From: Acidobacteriota bacterium
GTDB taxonomy: Bacteria; Acidobacteriota; Terriglobia; Terriglobales; Acidobacteriaceae
Assembly (NCBI GenBank): GCA_046735175.1
Contig: JBKPSP010000027.1
Coordinates: 220-64,219 of the forward strand
Reading direction: 5' to 3'
DNA length: 64,000 nucleotides
This document shows, in pieces, positions 8,898 to 62,531 of the stretch. The notes beneath the pieces are model-generated. The model was not told where the DNA came from. It did no database searches and worked only from the letters and a program-made list of their open reading frames with translations. The stretch's first letter is position 1; the number at the start of each line of letters is the position of its first letter. A program made the translations under genes and the position numbers.

Positions 8898-10201
8898 GCG
8901 CCACTTCCGCGCGCAACAGCGCCGATCGTCCGCCACAGAATCCGGAGATCAAGCCAAAGGCTCCAGTTGCGGATGTATTCCACATCCAGGGCAACGCTCT
9001 TCTCGAAGGAAGGGTCCTGTCGGGCAGTGACTTGCCACAATCCAGTAATCCCGGGCACGAAATCCAATCTGCGCAGATGGTGAGTGCCATAGCGCTTGAA
9101 ATCATCCGGCGGATGCGGCCTCGGTCCCACCAAACTCATTTCGCCGCGAAGCACGTTCCAGAGCTGTGGAAGTTCGTCGAGGCTGTAGCGGCGGAGAAGT
9201 TTGCCAACGCGGGTGACCCGCGGGTCATCGGTGATCTTGAAAAACGCGCCTGTTCGTTGATTGCGCTTCCGAAGTTGCTCTTTACCAGCTTCTGCATCCG
9301 CCGCCATGGTCCGAAACTTGTAGCAGCGGAACCTTCGCCCTTTAGTCCCCACTCGCTGACTTCGGTAGAGAACCGGCCCTTCGGAATCGATAGCGATCAA
9401 GGCTGCGATGACCAACATCAGCGGGAGAAGTGCTATGAGCGCAAGGGCTGACAACGCCACATCGGCGGCACGTTTTGCAAATAGTTGAATCGCCGGCCTC
9501 TGTTCGCGGCGGACACCTATCACGCGCGCGCGCCCGATGCGTTCAACGGTTATTTCTCCCGACTCTTGTTCGTCCAACTCAGGAATCGCGAAACTTACAT
9601 CAAGTCGCTGCCGTCGGGCTTCACGCATAACGGACAATAAGTCGACATCTTGCGAAACCACCAGGATTTCATCTGCAAACTGCTCGCGGGCAAGGGCTGC
9701 GAATTCTGCGCGCGCGCAGAGTTGCCGAAACTCGGAGGCTGAGATCACTCCGGTCACGCATCGATTCGAATTCCTAATCTCGGCAAGCGTGTTCATCGCC
9801 AGAGCGCCACTTCCAACTGCGAGTACGTTGCGGCGACTACATCTTTCCACCGATAGCGCCCGAACGGTCTTGCGCCCGAGGATTGCGAGAACGCAACTAA
9901 GTGGCACAGCGAGGAGCACAGACCATTGAGAAACGTGCGCTCGGAGGCCATACAGAACTGCAGCGAACAGTAACGAAGTGAACAGGCTTGTACCGAATAG
10001 GGCGAAATCATCCTGATCGAGCCACGTTCGGCGTTGCCGAACCAATCTGCGATAAACGTCGTTCTCAGCGCCAGGGATCAGGCGGGCGAGATCGGACGCT
10101 TGCGGTAAGCGTGGCACCGGCCGCGCGGCAATCGACGCAGGCGCAATCCGGCCATCAAGAATGTTGGTAAGTTGCCCCATTTCGAGTCTTCCGTTGTGCA
10201 C
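8894..10201 (-). CDS. Polyprenyl-phosphate glycosylphosphotransferase (WbaP/EpsB-type bacterial sugar transferase)
   Basis: 435 aa. N-terminal TM helices plus a CoA-binding-like region. The C-terminal bacterial sugar-transferase core is recognisable (FRCYKFRTM...DELPQLWNVLRGEMSLVGPRP). Confidence 0.9.
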   Translation of the reverse strand: MHNGRLEMGQLTNILDGRIAPASIAARPVPRLPQASDLARLIPGAENDVYRRLVRQRRTWLDQDDFALFGTSLFTSLLFAAVLYGLRAHVSQWSVLLAVPLSCVLAILGRKTVRALSVERCSRRNVLAVGSGALAMNTLAEIRNSNRCVTGVISASEFRQLCARAEFAALAREQFADEILVVSQDVDLLSVMREARRQRLDVSFAIPELDEQESGEITVERIGRARVIGVRREQRPAIQLFAKRAADVALSALALIALLPLMLVIAALIAIDSEGPVLYRSQRVGTKGRRFRCYKFRTMAADAEAGKEQLRKRNQRTGAFFKITDDPRVTRVGKLLRRYSLDELPQLWNVLRGEMSLVGPRPHPPDDFKRYGTHHLRRLDFVPGITGLWQVTARQDPSFEKSVALDVEYIRNWSLWLDLRILWRTIGAVARGSGA

Positions 10202-10231
10202 GGCGCTCCTCCCCAGAAGCGCCAGTGCACG

Positions 10232-10915
10232 TTACAGCCGGCGATAAATCGTTTCCGGCACATCAAAAACGCGATCGATCAAAACCGTTCCCAACAAGGG
10301 CAGTTTGTATTGCCCAACCTGTTGCTTCGCGTTCAATGCGACCTCTTTCCTGGTTTTGTTTGCGGTCACAACCAGCACGGCGGCATCGCAAACGCCGGCG
10401 AACGCCGGCAACTCGCCACTTCCCGCGCTCGTGGCGAAAAGAAAATATTGGAAAATCGTGCGGAACTCGGCCATGGATCCGCGCGGCGCGAAGCTCTCCT
10501 GGGCCAGGCGATCGCGGAACAACCATCCCGGCAGACGCCATACGCGATCGCTCAGCGCCACCGAATGAGCGCGCCACACATTCGATTCGGCAACACTCTG
10601 TGGAGGCCGTTTTGACGAAGGCGATACCAGCGCTCCGCCAATGACCGCCGCCTTCAGTCCTGAAATCGTGGCAAGTGTCACCGCGCTCTTCTCGCACAAC
10701 TCGACAACACGCGTCTCCTGATCGGCTGCAAGAAATAGAACCTTTCGGGGCACAACACTTGACCCCGTCGACACGAAGACTTGCCGAACGAGCCCGGCAT
10801 AAGGATCATTCGAGAGAACGTCCGGCCCGAAATCGGCGCCAGAAACTGTCGCGGTATCCGTCTGCGGAATGCGGGCCGGGGATCCAAGTTTCCAGAGCTC
10901 CGCGCTGACGCTCAT
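10232..10915 (-). CDS. BY-kinase (CpsD/EpsG)-like protein with degenerate nucleotide-binding motifs
   Basis: Position and overall pattern match the tyrosine autokinase of EPS loci. The Walker A position reads LFLAADQETRV instead of GEGKS, and there is no C-terminal Tyr cluster. ATGA overlap with the upstream chain-length determinant gene. Confidence 0.6.
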   Translation of the reverse strand: MSVSAELWKLGSPARIPQTDTATVSGADFGPDVLSNDPYAGLVRQVFVSTGSSVVPRKVLFLAADQETRVVELCEKSAVTLATISGLKAAVIGGALVSPSSKRPPQSVAESNVWRAHSVALSDRVWRLPGWLFRDRLAQESFAPRGSMAEFRTIFQYFLFATSAGSGELPAFAGVCDAAVLVVTANKTRKEVALNAKQQVGQYKLPLLGTVLIDRVFDVPETIYRRL

Positions 10916-12426
10916 ACTCCCCTCAGTCTTTCTTTCGGCAGAGAGCGCGGTTTAGGCAGCGCAGCCAGCACTGGCGTTCCCAACACCTGCATCACGTCAC
11001 CGGGACCGCGGAGAGATGGATCAAGATAGTTGGCGACGAACGCACAACCGGTGCTGACGGTCATCGCGCCAAACATCGCAACCAATGTTGAACTCCACAG
11101 CGGCCACACCGGCAAAACCGGCACATGAGGCGCTTCCGCGAGCGTGACGTTCAACATTCCGTTTTGATCGAGCGCATCTCCTATACGCGCCTCTTCGCGC
11201 TTGTTTACGTACAGCAGATATTTGTCTGCCGCTGACTTTAAGTTTTGTTCCAGGTCGCGCTGAACGATTGCGTTCTCGCCTAGCTTTTGCGCTGTCTGGC
11301 GATAGCCGATGATCTGCTTCAATTCGGTCACGTGCCGCTCTTCAAGTGCGTCGAGTTCAACTCGACTCTTCAAAGCTTCCGAATGGGCCCACTGGTATTC
11401 CGGGTCTTGTTCGGTTGTCTCGTCCCGCAGAGGCCTGAGGTCCTCCGCATCGATCGCAGATTTCGTCTGCCTGATCTGGTCCTCGACTTCCTGCACCAGG
11501 CGATAAGAGGGCTGAAATTTCGTCAGCAGTTCGGTGCGCCGAAGCTGAAGTTCAAGAAGTTTGGACTTGAGCTTTTCCTGGAGCTGCTGGTTGTCGGTAT
11601 TTCGGACCTGTCCTACCCGACGCTCTGGCAGGTCATGGAGTTTTGCCTCAAGGGTGTGCGCGCGCTTCGTTGCTTCTGCAATGGAGGCACGCAGCCCGAG
11701 ATCGCCAGCCTCAGCTTCACTTAATTTCTGAAGCGCCAGGTCACGTTCCAGTTCCGGGGACACTACGCGGTTCCTGCGCGTGAAGTCCATCAACCGTCGT
11801 TGTGCCGCATCCAGTGCCTGCCTTGCCTGCTGCATCTGCGATTCGAAAAACGTCTGCTGGCCCGAAGGACGCTTCATTGCAGCGTGTTTCTTGATGTATG
11901 CGTCAGCCAATTTTTCCAAGACTGCGGCTGACAGTTCGGGATTGCCAGAGCTGTAGGCGATCGTGATCAGCCGTGACTTACGGACCGGCAACACATCCAG
12001 TTTTTGAGCGAGACGTTGTACAGCCTTCTGTGTCCTTAGCTCTTGCGAATCGTTTCGCAAAGATGGCAGCCACGAATGTCTTTCGGCGAGTCCCGTTCCG
12101 AGAACGACCTCTCGAAGAATGTCGCCGTCGCGAACCAATTCCATCTCAGAATTCATTTCCTCTTCCGAGATTTCATCGTGATCGAACGCCGGCGAAACGG
12201 TCTGCGTGGGTGTTAACGCCGGATCGATGCGGCCTCGGCGGACAAGTATCTTCATTTCCGCTTTGTACGACGGCATCAAAATGGCGTAGCCCGTGATTCC
12301 GGTGAAGATGAGAAGGAAAACGATGACAAACATTAGCTTGTGACGAAACAGAATGCTTGCCACATCTCTCGCCGTAAGTCGGCGAGACGGATCGAACCGC
12401 GCAGCGAGTTGTAAGGAATCCCCCAT
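10912..12426 (-). CDS. Polysaccharide chain-length determinant (Wzz/GumC family)
   Basis: 504 aa. N-terminal Wzz-type TM segment (HKLMFVIVFLLIFTGITGYAIL), a long coiled-coil periplasmic region and a C-terminal TM helix. Confidence 0.85.
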   Translation of the reverse strand: MGDSLQLAARFDPSRRLTARDVASILFRHKLMFVIVFLLIFTGITGYAILMPSYKAEMKILVRRGRIDPALTPTQTVSPAFDHDEISEEEMNSEMELVRDGDILREVVLGTGLAERHSWLPSLRNDSQELRTQKAVQRLAQKLDVLPVRKSRLITIAYSSGNPELSAAVLEKLADAYIKKHAAMKRPSGQQTFFESQMQQARQALDAAQRRLMDFTRRNRVVSPELERDLALQKLSEAEAGDLGLRASIAEATKRAHTLEAKLHDLPERRVGQVRNTDNQQLQEKLKSKLLELQLRRTELLTKFQPSYRLVQEVEDQIRQTKSAIDAEDLRPLRDETTEQDPEYQWAHSEALKSRVELDALEERHVTELKQIIGYRQTAQKLGENAIVQRDLEQNLKSAADKYLLYVNKREEARIGDALDQNGMLNVTLAEAPHVPVLPVWPLWSSTLVAMFGAMTVSTGCAFVANYLDPSLRGPGDVMQVLGTPVLAALPKPRSLPKERLRGV

Positions 12427-51191: not shown

Positions 51192-51394
51192 AGGTATTGG
51201 TAAATTCCGAATCTGGATTATACCCATCGCCGGGCGCGCGATGCAGTTTCCCAAAATGGCCAGGGAAGAAATCAACCCGCAATCCTTGTAGCTAAACCAA
51301 AAAAAATGGGCATATGATCCACAGCAGCGCCACATAGTCCGACACCTGTGGCCGGTGCACCTTCCGAAAGCCCGCTTCCTTGAACGGAGGCCCG

Positions 51395-52549
51395 ATGTCA
51401 CTGTTAAATACTGGCTCCGCCTCGTTTGTACCCTCGCGTTTCCTCAAACATCAGGTTCTTACCATCGCGGTTGGCGTGTCCCTCACGATCGGGGCCTTCG
51501 CCATTTGGCCGATATTGCCTGTTCAGTTGCTGAGCACAAACTATCTACCCCACGCATTTTGCTATTTGAGGAGGCCCGGGTTGGTGTGGACCCACGTCTC
51601 TGCAGATTTACTGATTGGGGTGTCATACCTTGCGATCTCGATCACGCTCGGATATCTGGGTTACAAAGGGCGGCGCGATGTTCCGTATCACTGGATGTTT
51701 CTGGCGTTCGGACTCTTCATTCTTGGCTGTGGCGGAACGCATTTCGTGGAAGCGGTCACGTTTTGGATCCCCGTGTATGTGCTGGCGGCCGCGGTCAAAC
51801 TTTTCACCGCTGCAGTTTCGCTCACTACAGCTGCGGTGCTTCCTTTTACTGTGCAGCACGCGTTTGACCTCATAAAGCAGGCTAGAGCAACGGAACAACG
51901 GACGGCAGAACTGCGCGCAAGTGAAGAGCGTAAGGATGCCCTGCTTCAGGAAGTCCATCACCGGGTGAAAAACAATATGGCGGTGATTTGCAGTCTTTTT
52001 TATCTGCAATCGATCCATACGAAGGACGAGGAGACCGCGCAGATTTTTCGTGACATGGAGAATCGCGTGCATTCCATGGCGCTGGTCCACGAAAGCCTCT
52101 ACGGATCGGACAACCTGGCGCGCATCGACTTTGCCGAATATTCCCGGCGTTTGGCGGAAGATATTCTGGCGTCGCACGGGAGCCCTGACGTGTTAGTGCG
52201 CTTGCGTGCCGAACTGGAGCCTGTAACCATGGGCGCTGACTTAGCGGTGCCATGTGGGCTCATCCTCAATGAACTGGTCTCGAATGCGTTTAAGCATGGC
52301 TTTCCTGAGGGCGCGCGCGGCGAGATCAACCTGACGCTGCGCGGTGATGCAGGCGGCAGATATACTCTGTGCGTTCAGGACAGCGGGGTGGGGATTCCCG
52401 CCGGCCTTGATGTCAGAAACAGCCGATCTCTTGGACTGAAACTGGTGCGGTTGCTGACCCAGCAGATTCGCGGTTCGTTCGAGCTGGTGAAGTGTGACCA
52501 GGGGACCTCAGCCAACCTGCACTTTGAGGTGAGCCAACATGCATGCTGA
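51395..52549 (+). CDS. Membrane sensor histidine kinase: ethylene-binding-domain-like TM module + HisKA_2 + HATPase_c
   Basis: ATG 51395 follows GGAGG. The TM region aligns with ETR1 residues ~20-115, including C-x3-H (LGCGGTHF). The H-box EVHHRVKNNMAVI is HisKA_2 type. The ATP-binding region is LILNELVSNAFKHGF...DSGVGIP...GLKLV. Confidence 0.8.
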   Translation: MSLLNTGSASFVPSRFLKHQVLTIAVGVSLTIGAFAIWPILPVQLLSTNYLPHAFCYLRRPGLVWTHVSADLLIGVSYLAISITLGYLGYKGRRDVPYHWMFLAFGLFILGCGGTHFVEAVTFWIPVYVLAAAVKLFTAAVSLTTAAVLPFTVQHAFDLIKQARATEQRTAELRASEERKDALLQEVHHRVKNNMAVICSLFYLQSIHTKDEETAQIFRDMENRVHSMALVHESLYGSDNLARIDFAEYSRRLAEDILASHGSPDVLVRLRAELEPVTMGADLAVPCGLILNELVSNAFKHGFPEGARGEINLTLRGDAGGRYTLCVQDSGVGIPAGLDVRNSRSLGLKLVRLLTQQIRGSFELVKCDQGTSANLHFEVSQHAC

Positions 52550-52955
52550 TTTAATCACGACTGAGCCACGCGCACTGATTGTGGAAGATGAAGCTCTGAT
52601 CGCGGAAGAACTGAGAGAGCGGCTTTCGCGGTTGGGTTTTTCGATCATTGCGGCTGTGGATTCCGGCGAAGAAGGTATAGCAATCGCTACGCGAGAACGT
52701 CCTGACCTAGTCTTGATGGACATAAGGTTGAAGGGCCAGAAGGATGGCGTCCAAGCTGCTAAAGAGATTCGCGAGCAGGTTGATGTGCCAATTGTTTACC
52801 TGACTGCCCACTCGGATCGTGGCACTGTGGACCGGGCGAGTAATACCGACCACGATGGTTTCATCCTGAAGCCATTCGTGAGGCGAGAATTGCAGTCTAC
52901 GATAGAGGTCGCGATGCAGCGGCATGCGATGAGGGCGCAGGAGAAGGTGCAGTAG
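52539..52955 (+). CDS. Single-domain response regulator (CheY-like)
   Basis: Canonical receiver: VEDE acidic pair, DLVLMDIRL phospho-acceptor, YLTAHS and ILKPF. It overlaps the kinase gene by 11 nt. Confidence 0.9.
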   Translation: MHADLITTEPRALIVEDEALIAEELRERLSRLGFSIIAAVDSGEEGIAIATRERPDLVLMDIRLKGQKDGVQAAKEIREQVDVPIVYLTAHSDRGTVDRASNTDHDGFILKPFVRRELQSTIEVAMQRHAMRAQEKVQ

Positions 52956-53146: not shown

Positions 53147-54178
53147 CTATTCGATTCCTCGACCAGTCAACCGTTCGATTACGGTTTTCACTGGGCCTGA
53201 GAGTTCAATGCTCCCCTCAAAACTGCGCGTTTCTATTCCGTCGCTCTCGGCGACAATCATGTCTTTGTCGTGAAACTCAAAAATAATCCTGGGTTGGCCT
53301 ATGGGAAGCCCGTGCCGTCTGGAACGAGAAACCACAAAGGCCCACATTGACTGCCCAGCCCGTAGTCGGCTGTCGTACCCGGCTTGGCGGAGTTGTCGCA
53401 GGAAGTGAAGCACTTTAGTTCGTGAAGGGAAATGGAAATCATCGACGTAGGAACGTTCAACCCAATTCCAGCTGTGCAGAAATTCGCCTTCTATGGGATT
53501 CCCGCGTTCGTAATACTCGGCGATTTCTCCTATGGAAAGCCACGGGAATTCTTTGCGCATTTCTGACGGTTGTACATCCTCGCAGAGCCATCTTTTCAGG
53601 ACAGCACCGAATTGGCTCAAATCATCTACATCGTGACGAAACATCTCACAGTCATCCCATTTGCAGGATGCTTGAGGGACATCGTTACGAAGATAAATAT
53701 GACATGAGCGTGCGTGAGTTCGAAACCAGAGTGATCGGAACTCAGGCGACGCAAGGCCTTTCTGGAGTTCGGTTGAAAGCTTCTGCAGTTCCGGAAACGC
53801 CTTAGTAACAGAGGTAAGAATGTGAGTTAATTCGCGTTCTGGCTTGTCCACAAATGCGAAATGGTCGTAGAGCGAGGACAGTGACTGACCATCCAGCCAG
53901 CATTGAACAGCTCTCTCTGCCTCGTCGATCGACCGCGTTCTGCCAGCCGCAACTTTCTGCTCTACATCTTTAAATACGATCAGGAACTCAGGGCCGCGAT
54001 ACTCACGGAGTCGGTAATGGAAGCAGTGCACAACAGCCAATCGTTGCTGCCGCTTCGCACGGCATTTGGAGTTCGTTCCCTTTCCGTTAATCTCCACAGT
54101 AACATCGGCCGAACGTGGGAACCGCTGAACTAGACGGTCGGATAACTCGCACGCGTAATCTTCCTGGGGGTATTGCAT
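53147..54178 (-). CDS. Hypothetical protein, no recognisable domain (AT-richer orphan)
   Basis: 343-aa uninterrupted ORF flanked by ~190-nt and ~280-nt non-coding regions. A hand count of nt 53401-53520 gives 57/120 G+C. Confidence 0.6.
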   Translation of the reverse strand: MQYPQEDYACELSDRLVQRFPRSADVTVEINGKGTNSKCRAKRQQRLAVVHCFHYRLREYRGPEFLIVFKDVEQKVAAGRTRSIDEAERAVQCWLDGQSLSSLYDHFAFVDKPERELTHILTSVTKAFPELQKLSTELQKGLASPEFRSLWFRTHARSCHIYLRNDVPQASCKWDDCEMFRHDVDDLSQFGAVLKRWLCEDVQPSEMRKEFPWLSIGEIAEYYERGNPIEGEFLHSWNWVERSYVDDFHFPSRTKVLHFLRQLRQAGYDSRLRAGQSMWAFVVSRSRRHGLPIGQPRIIFEFHDKDMIVAESDGIETRSFEGSIELSGPVKTVIERLTGRGIE

Positions 54179-56146: not shown

Positions 56147-57736
56147 ATGCCTAACTCTCACGACATCGTCATTATCGGCGGCGGGCACAACGGCCTGGTC
56201 ACGGCATTTTATCTTGCCAAGGCCGGATTAAAGCCGCTGGTATTGGAGCGACGTAATCAGGTTGGCGGCGCGGCCATCACGGAGGAATTCCACCCTGGTT
56301 TTCGCACATCCGCCCTCGCGCACTCGGCGGGGCCGCTGCGCCCGGAAGTCGGGCGCGACATGCAGCTTGAGCGGCATGGGCTGAAGATCGTCACTCCTGA
56401 AATCGCGGTAACAACGCTTTCGCCTGATGGACGCGCGCTGATGATTCCGGCCGACATTAACAAAGCCGCGGAGCAAATCGCCAGGTTCTCGCAGGCGGAC
56501 GCTGCAAAGTACCGTGAGTTCCAGCCTGCATTAGAAAAAGCCTCACGGGTGATCGCAAAAACTCTGGCGATGACTCCGCCAGAAATTGAGAATCCGACGA
56601 AGGCTGATCTGTTCGGGCTGCTTCAGATCGGACGGTCCGTGCGCGGGCTAGGAAGGAAGAACACGTTCAACCTGCTGCGCTGGGCGCCGATGGCGGTTGC
56701 CGATCTTGCAGCTGAGTTTTTCGAAACAGAATTACTGCGCGCCACGGTTGCTGCTCGCGGGATATTCGGGACATTTCTGGGGCCGTGGTCGGCAGGGACG
56801 GCGCTGGTGCTGTTGCTTCGCGCCGCGGCGGACGCGACTCCGGTTGGCGGCAATTTCTTTGCTGTTGGCGGCGCAGGAGCGATCACGCAAGCGATGGCTG
56901 CCGCGGCACAGCAAGCCGGCGGGGAGATTCGCACTGGCGCGGAAGTGATTGAGATTCAGATCCAGGGCGGAGTGGCGCGCGGCGTGGTGCTGTCATCAGG
57001 AGAAGAGATCACGGCGCGCGCGGTGATTTCGAACGCCGATCCGAAGCGGACGTTCCTTAAGCTGACCGATCCTTCGTTGCTTTCGCCTACATTTACGAAA
57101 CGTCTGCAGAATTATCGGACGAATGGAACCGTCGCGAAGGTGAACCTGGCGCTCGCGGGGCTGCCGACTTTCAAGGGTCTTGAAGGGAATACCGAGGCGC
57201 TGAAAGGCCGAATGCAGATCGGGCATGAGATTGATTATCTGGAGCGCGCGTTTGATGAGTCGAAGTATGGGAACTTTTCGCGCGCGCCGTATCTGGAGAT
57301 CACGATCCCGTCGCTGACCGATCCTTCGCTTGCCCCGGACGGCAGGCACGTGATGTCTGTTTACATGCAGTACGCGCCTTACAAATTGAAGAATGGCACT
57401 TGGGACGATCAGCGTACCGCGCTCGGCGACACGGTGGTGAAGACGCTCGCACAATATGCGCCTGACCTGCCGGAGAAGATCTTGAGCCATCAGATCATCA
57501 CGCCTCAGGACCTTGAGGACAACTACGGGCTGACCGGCGGGCACATCTTCCACGGCGAACTGGCGCTGGATCAGGTGTTCACCATGCGTCCGATGCTGGA
57601 TTGGGCGCGGTACCGCACGCCGATTCACGGGTTGTATTTGTGCGGCTCGGGGACGCATCCCGGGACGGGGTTGACCGGCGGTTCGGGGCAGAATGCGGCG
57701 AGGGAGATTGTGAAGGATTTGAAGAACCGGCGGTGA
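56147..57736 (+). CDS. Phytoene-desaturase (CrtI)-family NAD(P)/FAD-dependent oxidoreductase, paralogue 2
   Basis: IIGGGHNGL motif and GSGTHPGTGL. Collinear similarity to paralogue 1 along the whole length. Confidence 0.85.
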   Translation: MPNSHDIVIIGGGHNGLVTAFYLAKAGLKPLVLERRNQVGGAAITEEFHPGFRTSALAHSAGPLRPEVGRDMQLERHGLKIVTPEIAVTTLSPDGRALMIPADINKAAEQIARFSQADAAKYREFQPALEKASRVIAKTLAMTPPEIENPTKADLFGLLQIGRSVRGLGRKNTFNLLRWAPMAVADLAAEFFETELLRATVAARGIFGTFLGPWSAGTALVLLLRAAADATPVGGNFFAVGGAGAITQAMAAAAQQAGGEIRTGAEVIEIQIQGGVARGVVLSSGEEITARAVISNADPKRTFLKLTDPSLLSPTFTKRLQNYRTNGTVAKVNLALAGLPTFKGLEGNTEALKGRMQIGHEIDYLERAFDESKYGNFSRAPYLEITIPSLTDPSLAPDGRHVMSVYMQYAPYKLKNGTWDDQRTALGDTVVKTLAQYAPDLPEKILSHQIITPQDLEDNYGLTGGHIFHGELALDQVFTMRPMLDWARYRTPIHGLYLCGSGTHPGTGLTGGSGQNAAREIVKDLKNRR

Positions 57737-57854
57737 GCTTCTCTGCGGCCTCGTTGGTTTTCCCTGCGTACTCTGCGGTTAAGAGCTTTTCGGCAGCTAA
57801 GAGATCTTAACCGCAGAGGTCGCCGAGAAAAATCGCGGAGATCGCCGAGAAAAC
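57737..57854. repeat. TTAACCGCAGAG-type inverted-repeat element
   Basis: ...ctctgcggttaagagct ... agatcttaaccgcagaggtcgccgagaaaaatcgcggagatcgccgagaaaa begins at the base after the stop codon. Confidence 0.85.
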
Positions 57855-57902
57855 TCTTATCCAAGCCGATTGGTCGGGTACCATCGCATTTACCGAACCT
57901 AC

Positions 57903-58760
57903 ATGACAAGGAATTCTGCCGTTCTGCTACTGAGCTGTCCCGACCGCAAGGGCATCGTCGCGGCGGTGTCGGGATTCGTTGCGCAGCATGGGGGCAACAT
58001 TCTGCACGCTGATGAACATGGAGATCACGACTCCGACACGTTTCTGATGCGCGTCGAGTTCGATCCTGCAGGGCTCGATTTGCCGCTGACCGATTTCAAT
58101 TGGCAGTTCAAGAAAATTGCCGAACAGTTCTCCATGCAGTGGCGGCTGGCGCTCTCGGATGTGCGGCAGCGCATGGCGATTCTGGTTTCGAAGTACGACC
58201 ACTGCCTGGTGGACCTGCTGTATCGGCACAAGAGCGGAGAGTTGGCTTGCGACATTCCCTGCATTGTTTCAAATCACGCGGACAGCCAAGCCATCGCAGA
58301 TTTTTACCGCATCCCGTTTTATCTGATTCCAGTTGAGAAGGACGCCAAGCGAGCAGCCGAAGGCCAGATTCTGGCACTGCTTGAGCGCAACGCGGTGGAC
58401 TTCATCGTGCTCGCGCGCTACATGCAGATTCTCTCGACGGATTTTGTAAACAAATATCCCAGCCGCATCATCAACATTCATCATTCGTTTTTGCCGGCGT
58501 TTGTTGGGAGCAGGCCCTATCATCAGGCATTCGAGCGCGGCGTGAAGCTGATCGGCGCAACCAGCCACTACGTCACCGAAGTGCTTGACGACGGTCCCAT
58601 CATCGAGCAGGATGTGGTGCGCGTTTCGCATCGCGATTCGGTCGAAGATTTGATTCAGAAGGGGCGCGATCTGGAGAAGGTGGTGCTGTCGCGCGCGGTG
58701 CGGTGGCACATTGAGAATCGGGTGCTGCTTTATGGGAACAAGACTGTAGTGTTTGAGTAA
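57903..58760 (+). CDS. purU: Formyltetrahydrofolate deformylase
   Basis: N-terminal ACT domain (VLLLSCPDRKGIVAAVSGFV) and a formyltransferase core (INIHHSFLPAF.G..PY.QA). Start at ATG 57903. Confidence 0.93.
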   Translation: MTRNSAVLLLSCPDRKGIVAAVSGFVAQHGGNILHADEHGDHDSDTFLMRVEFDPAGLDLPLTDFNWQFKKIAEQFSMQWRLALSDVRQRMAILVSKYDHCLVDLLYRHKSGELACDIPCIVSNHADSQAIADFYRIPFYLIPVEKDAKRAAEGQILALLERNAVDFIVLARYMQILSTDFVNKYPSRIINIHHSFLPAFVGSRPYHQAFERGVKLIGATSHYVTEVLDDGPIIEQDVVRVSHRDSVEDLIQKGRDLEKVVLSRAVRWHIENRVLLYGNKTVVFE

Positions 58761-58844
58761 TTTAGAACCGGGGTCCTTCGGATCCAGGGTTCCCGCCCTG
58801 GAATAGAAGTATTGAGATTGCTTACCCGGGCGCATGAATCTATC

Positions 58845-59708
58845 ATGCCTGCTACAAAGGAAAAACATGGCCGCACAAGACCAATTACTGTATGTGTAAT
58901 TAACCTGAAGGGCGGTGTGGGAAAGTCTACTATTGCCGCTCTACTGGCACGAAGAGCGTTTACGAGAGGTCTGGATGTTCTGGCAATTGATCTTGACCCG
59001 CAAGCGAACCTTAGCCAGGGGCTTATGCACAGTGATTACAGAGAGTTCTTGAAACAGCAACGCCCTTCCATAGTTGAAGTTTTCAGCGGATACATCCCAC
59101 CATCTAAACAGGCATCGTCGCCCTCTTCCCTCCCTATCAACGCCACATTCGAAGTTATCGCCCAATCAGACGCTAAGTCACTTCAATTAATTCCGGCGCG
59201 GTTTGATTTTTCTGACAACTTACTGGGTGCAATTCGGCCAGATCCTAAGGTGCTTGCCAAGTTTCTAAGTTCGAATTTCAAGCATAAAGACCTCATCATC
59301 ATTGACTGCTCACCGACGGAGTCGATTCTAACAACCGCCGCCTACCATGCTAGTGGCAACGTGCTAGTACCCGTAAAACCTGAGTACTTTGCCACGGTGG
59401 GCTTTCCATTACTACGAGAGTCTCTTGAGAATTTCAGGAGCCATAATCGCGCCCACCACATTTCTGTTGTGGGTGTCGTTATCAACAATGCCTTCTACGA
59501 TGGGGGAAACAACGGAGGTCCCGAGAAGACGCGCGCCCTGGCTGATATTAGAACGGAGGCCAAGAAGAATGGGTGGAGAGTGTATGCGCACGAAATTGAG
59601 CACTCGAGAGGATTCCCCAAGATCATGCGCGGCGACTACAGTTATCCCGGCAATGCCCAATATTTCTACACATTTGCGAATGAATTCTTCGAATCTATTG
59701 GTGTGTAG
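58845..59708 (+). CDS. ParA/MinD-superfamily (deviant Walker A) ATPase, orphan
   Basis: VINLKGGVGKSTIA (deviant Walker A), DLDPQANLS (A') and LIIIDCSP (Walker B). No parB-like gene nearby. The first 120 nt have 57 G+C by hand count, versus 70/119 in purU. Confidence 0.85.
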   Translation: MPATKEKHGRTRPITVCVINLKGGVGKSTIAALLARRAFTRGLDVLAIDLDPQANLSQGLMHSDYREFLKQQRPSIVEVFSGYIPPSKQASSPSSLPINATFEVIAQSDAKSLQLIPARFDFSDNLLGAIRPDPKVLAKFLSSNFKHKDLIIIDCSPTESILTTAAYHASGNVLVPVKPEYFATVGFPLLRESLENFRSHNRAHHISVVGVVINNAFYDGGNNGGPEKTRALADIRTEAKKNGWRVYAHEIEHSRGFPKIMRGDYSYPGNAQYFYTFANEFFESIGV

Positions 59709-59734
59709 CTGTAGGAATTCGGTAGGATAAACAG

Positions 59735-60265
59735 ATGAAGAACCAAAATGGCGTTCTGCCCAGATTGGTCCAAATACTGGTGGACGAGTGGGGGTACGAC
59801 AGAGTAGCGCAAGAACTCTCTCGTGTTAACCGATTCTCGGATATTTCTTTGCCCTCACGCCGTTCAAGAAATGGTTCGGCGAAACGCAGGCTCAATCCAA
59901 CGGAGCAAGTACAGAAGATGCCACTCGAGTCGGGCCGACGAGAGGCGCTACTGCGACTCGCGAAGCGATATGAAGAGCGACAATTTTTGCCAAATGTCGC
60001 GGCAGTCAGAGAATTTTTGTCGATGGCGGGTTACGATCCAGGTCCGATGAAGGATCGGGATCAAGCGTTTCGAACCCTACTCTTAACGCTTCTTCAACTT
60101 CCAACTGAGCGGCTCAACCAGCTGACGCACTCTTCCCTGCACTCAGGTCCTTCGCAGCTCGGCCCAATATCTGACGCAATTGCAGCGGCGGGAGAACAGA
60201 TGCCGAGGCGGGCCCATCCATCCGACACGTCCTCGAACTCCGAACATGAGGTGCAAAAGTTTTGA
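59735..60265 (+). CDS. Hypothetical 176-aa protein, candidate ParA partner
   Basis: It starts 26 nt after the ParA-like gene and has the same AT-richer composition. It has a basic stretch (SRRSRNGSAKRR) and a Ser/Pro-rich C-terminus. No domain recognised. Confidence 0.55.
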   Translation: MKNQNGVLPRLVQILVDEWGYDRVAQELSRVNRFSDISLPSRRSRNGSAKRRLNPTEQVQKMPLESGRREALLRLAKRYEERQFLPNVAAVREFLSMAGYDPGPMKDRDQAFRTLLLTLLQLPTERLNQLTHSSLHSGPSQLGPISDAIAAAGEQMPRRAHPSDTSSNSEHEVQKF

Positions 60266-60351
60266 CAGGTTTTCCTTACCAAGGTAACTACCTCGTAATC
60301 CCTCCCCTCTGGCAGTATTAATTTGGAACCGGTTTCATCGAGGGAAAACTA

Positions 60352-61854
60352 TTGGCTGAAGATCCCAAATGGGAGCTTGCCATCCTCGCCACCGTGCAGG
60401 GCTTTTACGAGAAGCTTTTGCAGGAGGCGGTGGAGGGCGAGGTACCTGTGCCTGCGGGTCTCGAGACTGTCTCACTGCAAGGAGATGATGACGTCGGGGG
60501 CATGCTGGCGGCAATGCGGCGCTGGCTGCGTCTGCTCGACATGGCAATTTCTCCGGCAATGCTGCGCCGCGCTTTTGGCGAGCAGACCGATCCCGAGATC
60601 GCCGAGGCCATGCTCCGTTATTTTGTGCGGAAGAAAGAGCACACGGAATCCGACCGCGACAAGACCGACATTGTTGCCACGTTCTTGTACCGGCATCCGC
60701 GCGTGCCAGGGCAGTGGGAGCAGCGCGGCTACGGACTGGATGGATCGCTGCCGCTTTCGCCGTTTGAAATCGCGCTGATCGAGATTCTTGCCGATTCCGA
60801 CCTGCCCGAGTTGCCGGAAGAACATCTGCAACTGCTGCGCCGCTTCGATCCGCTGGAAGAGCAGGTGCTTCGTTTTCGCGATCTGAATGCGCTGCTTGAG
60901 TCGGGGCTGATTCAGACCGTGCGTCAGTTGAAGGGGACGCTCGAAGATTCGTTCTTTCATCCCGGCGTGCTGGCGACGATCGCGCCTTACAACGCGACAT
61001 TTGGCGCGAAGTTCGATGAACTGTTTCGCGAGGCGACGAAACAGATCAAAGATTTCTCTACCGAGCTGGAAGACCAGGGCGGAACGATTCTCGGCAGCGT
61101 GGATGGCGTGGATGTAACCGTCGATCACGTCAAGGCAATGGACGAGGACAATCTGCTCAAGCTCGATTATGGTCAGGCGCTCGACAAGTTCCGCCGGGTT
61201 TCGAAGTTAAAGCAGACGCTGGAACAGAAGCCTCCCATGAAGCGCGGATCGAAGCCGGCGAAACCCGCGCCGAAACCAGCCGTGAAGACGGCGAGCGCGG
61301 TGGTGGTAAATGCGCCTTTCAATTTGAAGGCGATGCGGAAAGCGGTCACGCCGCAGCAGGTGGCGGCGGAAGAGACCAAGCTGTTGAAGGTCGAGGAGTC
61401 GGTAAGAATTTTCGTGCGCGTGGCCGATCCGAAGTTCCGGCAAGTGGTGCCGATGCGGTTCTTCAACCTGACGCTCACTCCGGCGGAAGCCGACGCATAT
61501 TGCGCGGACTATCTCGAAGAGAAAAGCTTGCGTGCCGGCGTAGCGCGAGTGCTGTTGCGGCTTGTAGCCGTGACGGCCCGGCTGATCACGGAGCTTGAGG
61601 AGTTGAAGCGGGCGAACAAATCTCCTTCGCTTTGGAAGCTGCATGCAGATTCGCTGGTCACGCTGCTCGAAATCGGCGCGAACGCCACGGAGAACGCCGA
61701 GAAGGTCTGCAATCTGGCTGGACAGCGTGGGCACCGGCAGCAGGTGGAAGAAGTCCAGACGTCGCTCAAGAAGCTTCGAGATTACAGCGGGATTGCGGAG
61801 CGCACGCTAACGGGATCGGCGGAGGCCAAGAGCGCGGCGGCGGGGGCGGATTAG
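60352..61854 (+). CDS. Hypothetical 500-aa protein (two helical halves joined by a Lys/Pro/Ala-rich linker)
   Basis: Long uninterrupted ORF with host-like G+C. TTG start uncertain; the next in-frame ATG is 50 codons downstream. No domain recognised. Confidence 0.6.
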   Translation: MAEDPKWELAILATVQGFYEKLLQEAVEGEVPVPAGLETVSLQGDDDVGGMLAAMRRWLRLLDMAISPAMLRRAFGEQTDPEIAEAMLRYFVRKKEHTESDRDKTDIVATFLYRHPRVPGQWEQRGYGLDGSLPLSPFEIALIEILADSDLPELPEEHLQLLRRFDPLEEQVLRFRDLNALLESGLIQTVRQLKGTLEDSFFHPGVLATIAPYNATFGAKFDELFREATKQIKDFSTELEDQGGTILGSVDGVDVTVDHVKAMDEDNLLKLDYGQALDKFRRVSKLKQTLEQKPPMKRGSKPAKPAPKPAVKTASAVVVNAPFNLKAMRKAVTPQQVAAEETKLLKVEESVRIFVRVADPKFRQVVPMRFFNLTLTPAEADAYCADYLEEKSLRAGVARVLLRLVAVTARLITELEELKRANKSPSLWKLHADSLVTLLEIGANATENAEKVCNLAGQRGHRQQVEEVQTSLKKLRDYSGIAERTLTGSAEAKSAAAGAD

Positions 61855-61901
61855 GTCTCGCTGACGTAGAGCCGTCAATCAGAACCCCATAGGAACACGG
61901 C

Positions 61902-62531
61902 ATGCCTCGTGCTAGTACCCTGAGCGAAATCATCGACATGTTGTGGGACCACCCCGAAAATGCGGAGTGGACTCCAAAACTTAAAGATATTCCTGGGCCG
62001 CTTTTTCGCGAATGGATGGCCAGCCGCGATATAGAGATCCTCGGGTTTGTATATTCGACGCTTGGCAACCAAAAATTTCGTGTTGAGCCGGAACTCTCAC
62101 TCGATGAGTACCTCAAATTCGTAAGGAACTACTACGAGCGGTGCTTCTTTGAGAATCCCGATGGCGAGTGGTCGGACAGCAGATACTCAGCAGGCTGGGA
62201 TCTGGTGAATGTGCTGGCATTCCAGTGGGATAGTTCGCAAGTGCCGCGGTCGGTCATGGAAGATTGGAAGAACTGGCTCGCTGAGAACTACAGACGCGGC
62301 TCAGAAGAGGTCCGGACCTGCATAATTAGTGCTACCCTCGAACATTTGTTCGAGAGGGGAACCATGCGCAAGTTCTTTGCCGATTGGGTGAAGGATCCAG
62401 TCCTAAGAACGGCTTACGAACATGCTCTACTTTGGTATGCGGGAGGCGGAAGGACACCACTTGGCAAGAGCACTGCTGTTCAGCCCCGCGTTCGATCTCA
62501 GCTGGAAAAGAGCCGTCTTTGCAAGAAATAG
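61902..62531 (+). CDS. Hypothetical 209-aa Trp-rich protein
   Basis: Uninterrupted ORF with no signal peptide and no domain recognised. Confidence 0.5.
   Translation: MPRASTLSEIIDMLWDHPENAEWTPKLKDIPGPLFREWMASRDIEILGFVYSTLGNQKFRVEPELSLDEYLKFVRNYYERCFFENPDGEWSDSRYSAGWDLVNVLAFQWDSSQVPRSVMEDWKNWLAENYRRGSEEVRTCIISATLEHLFERGTMRKFFADWVKDPVLRTAYEHALLWYAGGGRTPLGKSTAVQPRVRSQLEKSRLCKK

Follow-up and report, generated by a model that had tools for sequence, protein, structure and literature searches.

Why a two-gene cassette encoding a ParA-like ATPase and a small basic protein is kept between two conserved genes of a soil-dwelling Acidobacteriota bacterium is the question raised by the locus described here. 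The locus lies in a 64,000-nt stretch of contig JBKPSP010000027.1 (assembly GCA_046735175.1), referred to below as the window, to which all window coordinates refer. On the + strand, an open reading frame (ORF) for an ATPase of the ParA/MinD family (58845..59708; 287 aa from the ATG at 58845, open from a TTG at 58812), termed ParA below, is followed after 26 nt by an ORF for an all-helical 176-aa protein, termed the partner (59735..60265). Both sit in an inserted segment of 1513 nt (58761..60273), delimited by breaks in homology and by GC content, between purU and an ORF of 500 codons. The places of the two ORFs, the length of the partner and the 26-nt gap agree with an initial annotation of the same DNA. 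We favor, at a probability of roughly 40%, the reading that the pair is a self-contained, horizontally portable ParA-switch maintenance module, because related pairs sit next to attachment (att) sites as soj does in the island PAPI-1, because plasmid and conjugative members exist, and because a slowly evolving ATPase is combined with a fast-evolving partner.

An ATPase strictly paired with an uncharacterized protein

ParA and the partner are strictly paired: in every locus with room for both genes (more than 50 loci, in 22 independent contexts) ParA was found immediately upstream of the partner. Pairs were found in Acidobacteriota, Stellaceae and Sinorhizobium. Among the same loci identity was 63–82% for ParA and 29–65% for the partner, and the most distant pair, that of Sinorhizobium, showed 63% for ParA and 26% for the partner. 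A conserved ATPase with a fast-evolving partner is the pattern of pairs made up of a ParA and a centromere-binding protein.

ParA matched the Pfam families AAA_31 (96.6 bits at a cut-off of 27, E 2e-27) and CbiA (57.8 bits at a cut-off of 25.4) as well as phrog_164, a family of ParA-like partition proteins (E 1.9e-32), which bears out the ParA/MinD type assigned initially. Against the NCBIfam ParA_partition equivalog NF041546 it scored 67.2 bits, under the cut-off of 180 bits; by these scores it belongs to the superfamily and not to that equivalog. The nearest PDB sequences were Thermus Soj 1wcv (the best, E 2.8e-12), ParA 8ray and the delta protein of pSM19035 (2oze), with McdA (6non/6noo) as a weak match. 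The deviant Walker A motif NLKGGVGKST with its signature lysine (KGGVGKST at 58908-58931, + strand, from the translation) was invariant across 108 family members, and Walker A' (AIDLDPQAN) and Walker B (LIIIDCSPTES) were both read in the translation and conserved in the family consensus. All motifs listed in the initial annotation, namely KGGVGKST, DLDPQ, IIIDCSP and the basic patch SRRSRNGSAKRR of the partner, were found in the translations. In fact, 123 of the 123 ParA columns with at least 97% conservation among the 108 members were intact in the window protein. The subfamily counted 2,640 members at E≤1e-30, including one from a Stellaceae metagenome-assembled genome (MAG). Judged by motifs and profile matches, ParA is a deviant-Walker-A ATPase of the ParA/MinD type.

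For the partner, a word-indexed search returned 92 close homologues, and its profile returned 688 clusters (50% identity) at E≤1e-3 and 417 at E≤1e-10 among 1.84 billion cluster representatives. The alignment shows a conserved pair of N-terminal helices (LLxxLLxTLVDEWG), a linker that is basic and hypervariable (SRRSRNGSAKRR in the window, 59855-59890, + strand, from the translation), a conserved helical domain (FLPSVADVREFL, KDR, FRxLL) and the invariant motif SGPSQLGPxSDAI. The AlphaFold2 model, with a predicted local distance difference test score (pLDDT) of 73 and of 87–92 in the core, predicts a helical hairpin that a disordered basic linker joins to a helical bundle; the isoelectric point (pI) is 10.05 overall and 12 in the linker. 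No match to the partner was found in Pfam, NCBIfam, PHROG or PADLOC, none among PDB sequences by profile search and no Foldseek neighbor of the model with E<0.5 in PDB or BFVD, and a Pfam search of 10 longer family members matched nothing. No ParB/Srx, helix-turn-helix (HTH) or ribbon-helix-helix (RHH) fold was recognized by the profile, PDB and AlphaFold2/Foldseek searches, so that the initial remark that the partner lacks a ParB fold is upheld by homology searches, structure comparison and an all-helical model. By these searches the partner represents a large uncharacterized family.

Related pairs on mobile elements and between core genes

The neighborhoods of homologous pairs, which the initial annotation had proposed to analyze, revealed a link to mobile elements in the form of islands, relaxases and a plasmid-like contig. 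One island of 7.57 kb (L011/L115) lies at tRNA-Lys, where 48 nt of the 3' part of this tRNA recur as its repeat, and is ordered in L011 as attL, ParA, partner, a 197-aa gene, a type IIG restriction-modification gene, integrase and attR. Another (L151) spans 3.7 kb between 31-nt repeats and, apart from the pair, holds nothing but an integrase fragment and a 272-aa ORF without annotation, and a third (L102) covers 8.06 kb at tRNA-Leu, bounded by 42-nt tRNA-Leu repeats. Direct repeats and a recombinase are both present in these three islands, with the pair at the att-proximal end and the recombinase at the opposite one. An integrase also lies directly beside the pair in L104 and L152, and the integrases next to pairs are mutually unrelated (at most 31–40% identity over short stretches).

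The L152 pair is located on pSymA of S. meliloti T073 (NZ_CP021805.1, ~269–275 kb) in the order integrase, pair, SIR2-HerA-FRG and integrase; PLSDB shows no annotated features in this stretch. Overall, PLSDB held the pair in 1 of 72,556 plasmids, inside an integrase-flanked island, and a pattern search of IMG/VR with the partner profile found no relatives of the partner. A circular contig of 6.6 kb (L140; 123-nt terminal overlap) carries a MobA/MobL relaxase, a Gp49-family (HigB-like) gene and HTH_17, with ParA and the partner as its only partition-like genes, and apparently also a BrnTA-like pair, which was read from the sequence with no profile search. In the conjugative element L131 the pair follows HTH_36, a relaxase and a type IV coupling protein, and HipA is encoded ~3.4 kb downstream. 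One further pair, on a metagenome contig (L015), was observed between two inverted genes of the DNA_pol_B_2 family of family B polymerases (896-2975 and 9233-11674), one intact (813 aa) and one degraded, together with an HNH gene, which may be a pipolin-like or linear-element context.

Solitary copies were found between core genes, namely between purC and SMC (L147), between trmB and rimP-nusA-infB (L155) and between purU and the 500-aa gene in the window, where the copy is chromosomal. The L004 pair lies just past a tRNA-Leu, and those of L149, L142 and L106 have metabolic and regulatory genes around them. A repeat search of the window gave no array of centromere or iteron repeats, as the initial annotation had stated for parS-like arrays. 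Among the 7-mers within 300 nt upstream or downstream of the pair in the 22 loci nothing recurred consistently, a search that a single-site or intragenic centromere would escape. No specific description of an island or defense system made up of such a ParA and partner was found in the literature.

The cassette in the window is an insertion

The site was compared with 80 loci from Terriglobales/Acidobacteriota MAGs, retrieved with the 500-aa protein at 57–91% identity. Neither ParA nor the partner was found near the 500-aa gene in any of the 80 (7 kb on either side of this gene; the absence concerns the site, not whole genomes), and a module that is universal and syntenic in relatives, raised initially as the contrary outcome, is not what is seen. 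In 41 of the 80, purU lies directly upstream of the 500-aa gene, with a spacer of 106–1322 nt (median 231 nt). Homology to the 80 relatives ends at the purU stop (58759/60) and restarts at 60274/5, 8 nt past the partner stop codon, and the breakpoints in relatives' contigs from soil run X6 are exactly 58759 and 60275. On the strength of these empty sites and breakpoints the cassette is an insertion between two conserved genes, which is what the initial annotation had proposed when suggesting a search for empty sites. In a group of Logan contigs (L005-L009) with 85% DNA identity over 57802-61853, the cassette was present at the same site; among relatives that have the cassette, L005 is the nearest to the window.

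The cassette is compositionally foreign. GC content of the insert is 0.505, which is the 0.6th percentile among 1.5-kb windows of the 64-kb window, and GC at third codon positions (GC3) is 0.51 in ParA and 0.54 in the partner vs 0.70–0.81 in purU, the 500-aa gene, rng and oxidoreductases. The AT-richness noted initially is thus borne out by the GC profile; of the hand counts on which it had relied, 57 G+C in the first 120 nt of the ParA-like gene was obtained again from the ATG at 58845, and 70 of 119 for purU was corrected to 69 of 119.

No tRNA was found in the 64-kb window. A tblastn search with the L011 and L151 integrases gave no homologue there and Pfam gave no recombinase domain in the ORFs flanking the cassette (57870-62531), in line with the initial statement that no integrase is visible. 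The spacer between purU and the 500-aa gene, to judge from relatives, behaves as an integration or exchange hotspot, since other small accessory genes are found there: a gene resembling the 23S-rRNA intervening sequence (IVS)/bAvd family (L026), an ArsR and AHSA1 pair (L056) and unassigned ORFs (L022, L085).

Selection on the pair

Rates of non-synonymous (dN) and synonymous (dS) substitution were compared between the window and L005. dN/dS was 0.033 for ParA (dS 0.90), 0.160 for the partner (dS 0.66), 0.062 for purU (dS 0.66) and 0.022 for the 500-aa gene (dS 0.71). As dS differs little between the cassette and the flanking genes, the insertion is older than the split of the window and L005 lineages and to have been inherited vertically since. 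A second integrase-less pair, located next to MGMT in L001 and L097, gave a dN/dS of 0.053 for ParA and 0.138 for the partner. Homology between these two loci ends at the partner stop codon; a MazE-PIN pair follows just past the cassette in L001 and a PIN gene ~1.7 kb downstream in L097. The strong purifying selection in both comparisons indicates that solitary chromosomal copies of the pair are functional.

The flanking 11-mers and the leader of the 500-aa gene

The initial annotation had described an 11-nt near-direct repeat at 58761-71 and 60322-32 that bounded the insert as a target duplication would. Both 11-mers are present where they had been described; their role as borders did not hold. 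The left one (TTTAGAACCGG, 58761..58771, + strand) is a chance match and is absent in L005-L009, where unrelated sequence takes its position although the cassette sits at the same site. The right one (TTTGGAACCGG, 60322..60332, + strand) is part of a small hairpin in the leader of the host gene and occurs as a single copy at the empty sites L018, L025, L030 and L033, with the compensatory variants GGAAC-nn-GTTCC and GAAAC-nn-GTTTC. Furthermore, the right insert border (~60273) is 48 nt upstream of the right 11-mer, with host leader in between, the same arrangement as is seen at empty sites. Among shuffles, 4% produced a match of 10/11 between the spacers. Target-site duplication was rejected for the 11-mer pair because the host leader would then have to be left of the insert, yet it lies to the right; by these alignments the flanking repeat is a coincidence.

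The leader itself (60274..60351, + strand) lies outside the insert, as the leader or promoter region of the 500-aa gene, and is kept in the 17–18 closest relatives, which have no cassette. Over the ~80 nt before the 500-aa gene these relatives share the consensus CTTACCAAGGTAACTACC..CGTAA..CTCTGGCAGTATT..TTTGGAACCGGTTTCATCGAGGGAAAAC. In the window it was observed to contain a perfect palindrome TTACCAAGGTAA (60276-87, + strand), the CTCTGGCAGTATT box and the small hairpin with co-varying arms, with no match in Rfam; an Rfam scan of the whole of 57650-60450 likewise matched no family. The leader is probably an operator together with a promoter or 5' untranslated region element of an uncharacterized, Terriglobales-wide 500-aa gene.

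Start of the ATPase gene

Most ParA homologues start with MARxxGP at a canonical ATG behind a GGAG-type Shine-Dalgarno sequence, with a TAnnAT box 20–30 nt upstream. In the window the corresponding ATG, behind AAGGA (58857-61), opens a 10-codon ORF (58867..58899, + strand). Alignment with L005-L009 places this ATG at 58867 out of frame through a 4-nt deletion after 58877, and a second deletion of 1 nt before the canonical ATG brings the upstream ATG at 58845 into frame. The latter lacks a Shine-Dalgarno sequence and lies partly within the putative -10 box TATCAT (58841-46), which is why ParA may be translated from it only via read-through from purU. The database record of the window's own ParA (P0261) is a 227-aa product without the P-loop. 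The same ParA-start sequence was found in contigs from independent soil runs.

A putative cassette promoter (TTGCTT, 17 nt, TATCAT; 58818..58846, + strand) lies in a block shared with L005; in a consensus promoter scan it stayed below threshold and was not called. Just past purU, a hairpin read from the sequence (TCCAGGG-TTCCCG-CCCTGGA, 58783..58802, + strand) is a possible purU terminator that has no T-run and was not called in a terminator scan; a different hairpin occupies the same place in L005. Short palindromes over the -10 region were seen in the window, L001, L011 and L103 and are not conserved between the window and L005. Promoter, operator and the contact between ParA and the partner are putative.

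Other features of the window

Upstream of the cassette, purU (57870-58760) carries Formyl_trans_N and ACT domains by Pfam and is immediately preceded by a 22-nt unit in two tandem copies (AACCGCAGAGGTCGCCGAGAAA and AATCGCGGAGATCGCCGAGAAA, 57809-57852). Downstream, the 500-aa ORF (60352-61854) is followed by a 209-aa gene (61902-62531) located between it and rng, which we regard as a second accessory insertion: its GC3 is 0.59, and it was found in only 1 of the 80 relatives (L091), L005 having a 99-aa ORF on the opposite strand instead. Neither the 500-aa nor the 209-aa protein matched a family in Pfam, NCBIfam, PADLOC or PHROGs. A 343-aa ORF without a Pfam match (53147-54178, - strand) lies in a second stretch of higher AT content (GC ~0.50–0.52), beside genes for a histidine kinase of the ETR1_N/HWE type (51380-52549) and for a response regulator (52539-52955).

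Comparison with known systems

Type Ib partition systems (ParF-ParG of TP228, delta-omega of pSM19035) resemble the pair in a ParA of ~280 aa without an N-terminal HTH, in a small basic partner that begins ~26 nt on, and in the combination of a conserved ATPase with a fast partner. The delta protein of pSM19035 is among the PDB matches of ParA, and a related pair is found on a small circular plasmid-like contig (L140). They differ in that the partner here is all-helical, without an RHH or HTH signature or fold neighbor, and in that no repeat-type centromere was found for the present pair, which is nearly absent from sequenced plasmids and mostly chromosomal.

An analogy may also be drawn to Soj/ParA of the group of integrative and conjugative elements (ICEs) that includes PAPI-1, pKLC102 and ICEclc, in which the ParA gene lies at the island end opposite the integrase, by a tRNA att site, as it does in L011 at tRNA-Lys. 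Deletion of soj leads to loss of the PAPI-1 island (PMC4489591). Unlike these ICEs, the islands described here measure 3.7–8 kb, are without conjugation or replication genes and have a partner of another family.

McdA-McdB and other orphan ParA-adaptor pairs likewise consist of an ATPase of the ParA family and an adaptor that is small, basic, partly disordered and not a ParB, and McdA is the weak PDB match of ParA mentioned above. McdA is without the signature lysine of the deviant Walker A motif, whereas this residue is present in ParA here. In addition, the window flanks hold no carboxysome genes, no cargo operon lies nearby, and the pair is mobile-element borne and missing at the site in 80 related loci. 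Finally, the chromosomal Soj-Spo0J (ParABS) system supplies the best PDB match of ParA, Thermus Soj; it differs from the present pair, which has no ParB/Srx-fold partner and no parS, is not near the origin and is accessory rather than core.

Weighing the readings

By analogy with ParA ATPases, an ATP-dependent ParA dimer with a cycle set by a cognate partner may safely be inferred. As a portable maintenance module the pair would comprise a deviant-Walker-A ATPase forming ATP-sandwich dimers and a helical partner that would act as its cognate adaptor and activator, with the basic N-terminus (MK.R..LL) and the basic linker of the partner as candidate ParA-stimulating or DNA-contacting parts. The ancestral job of such a module would have been to retain or segregate the DNA that carries it, whether excised mini-islands, small plasmids or conjugative elements. 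In the window the pair would have arrived without an integrase in the hypervariable spacer between purU and the 500-aa gene, before the split from L005, and selection would have kept it since. We infer on this basis a physical interaction of ParA with the partner, DNA as the cargo and a maintenance role. The initial annotation had considered a remnant of a mobile element's partition system; the link to mobile elements stands, the term remnant does not, given the strong purifying selection on integrase-less copies.

Several observations weigh against such a module. No centromere-like repeat array lies near the pair in the 22 loci, the partner has no recognizable DNA-binding fold, the mini-islands are without replication genes, and the pair is found in just 1 of the 72,556 PLSDB plasmids and not in IMG/VR. 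Solitary integrase-less copies are moreover under purifying selection of housekeeping strength, which is not accounted for if the pair serves to partition an excised element. Since the integrases beside the pair are unrelated, the pair behaves as cargo or as a shuffled module and not as a fixed backbone.

A two-gene conflict system, of the anti-phage, anti-plasmid or addiction type, is a doubtful but serious alternative. In one variant the partner would keep a nucleoid-binding ParA·ATP dimer turning over, and once the partner is sequestered, lost or triggered by an invader, ParA would lock on DNA and arrest the cell or the invader; in another, related elements would be excluded through partition incompatibility. 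This fits the neighbors of the pair, which include a cyclase and patatin effector of CBASS (L125), SIR2-HerA (L152), the type IIG restriction-modification gene (L011), AbiEii/AbiEi with a phospholipase D (PLD) nuclease (L105), Dcm-Vsr (L132) and a GHKL ATPase with a methyltransferase (L136), as well as the toxin-antitoxin-type MazE and PIN genes (L001/L097), the Gp49 HigB-like gene (L140) and the HipA kinase (L131); DUF5343 and DUF4145 were found beside the pair in L138. Absence of the pair at the site in 80 of 80 related loci, its place in a hypervariable spacer between core genes where relatives have other accessory genes, its occurrence in more than one phylum (Acidobacteriota, Stellaceae, Sinorhizobium), strong purifying selection on solitary copies, fast evolution of the partner, unrelated integrases as expected for cargo, and the lack of centromere-like repeats and of a DNA-binding fold all point the same way. 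Decayed copies do so as well: ParA is damaged and the partner intact in L002, L111, L112/L144 and perhaps L149, to which the start lesion in the window is added, so that ParA is the gene hit in about 5 of 5 cases (p ~0.09 by chance alone), the sole indirect hint of a toxin-antitoxin arrangement. Against this, the partner has no match in PADLOC-DB v2, where ParA gives only a 42-residue P-loop match to the candidate PDC-M28B (E 2.4e-6); no nuclease, pore, NADase or other effector domain is present, and we know of no ParA/MinD-class ATPase that acts as a defense protein. Defense islands are also enriched in mobilome genes, and members of the family sit on a small plasmid and a conjugative element. 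That the pair is a new ParA-based conflict system, whose partner would restrain or direct a nucleoid-binding ParA and so protect the carrier, either by arrest of the cell or invader when the partner is perturbed or by exclusion of incoming related plasmids and islands via partition interference, seems to us unlikely on balance; it would explain the housekeeping-level selection on solitary integrase-less copies in defense hotspots.

It is improbable that the pair is a domesticated system that positions a host cargo in the style of McdAB, PomXYZ or ParC, with the partner tethering a cellular structure to a nucleoid ParA gradient. The solitary copies between core genes under purifying selection (window, L147, L155) and a partner laid out like non-ParB adaptors, with a helical domain, a disordered basic linker and a pI of 10, would suit such a role. 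However, foreign composition, absence from the site in all 80 related loci and frequent linkage to an integrase, att site, relaxase or plasmid do not. Nor does any neighboring gene recur in the 22 independent contexts, and for want of a conserved cargo gene among them the McdAB/PomXYZ-style positioning of a cargo suggested in the initial annotation finds no support.

It is very improbable that the window cassette has lost its function and is what is left of a decayed island, its ParA disabled by the start lesion: the out-of-frame canonical ATG, the ATG at 58845 without a Shine-Dalgarno sequence and overlapping a putative -10, the 227-aa record lacking the P-loop and a window with no integrase, att site or tRNA would suggest so, but dN/dS of 0.033 (ParA) and 0.160 (partner) over a dS of ~0.7–0.9, intact family-invariant ParA residues (123 of 123), two separate indels that together keep the frame open from 58845 and the recurrence of the sequence in independent soil contigs speak against it.

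Significance

ParA ATPases are general positioning engines of bacteria, with specificity residing in the partner. Here a highly conserved ParA subfamily is strictly tied to a partner family of ~700 clusters that is absent from Pfam, NCBIfam, PHROGs and PADLOC. In soil bacteria, across phyla, the pair is the hallmark of a class of integrase mini-islands of 3.7–8 kb with defense cargo, and it also persists alone under strong selection. Identifying what the partner binds would either extend the known types of adaptors or centromere-binding proteins by one or uncover a conflict system based on ParA, the first of its kind; it would also account for the retention of tiny islands that do not replicate.

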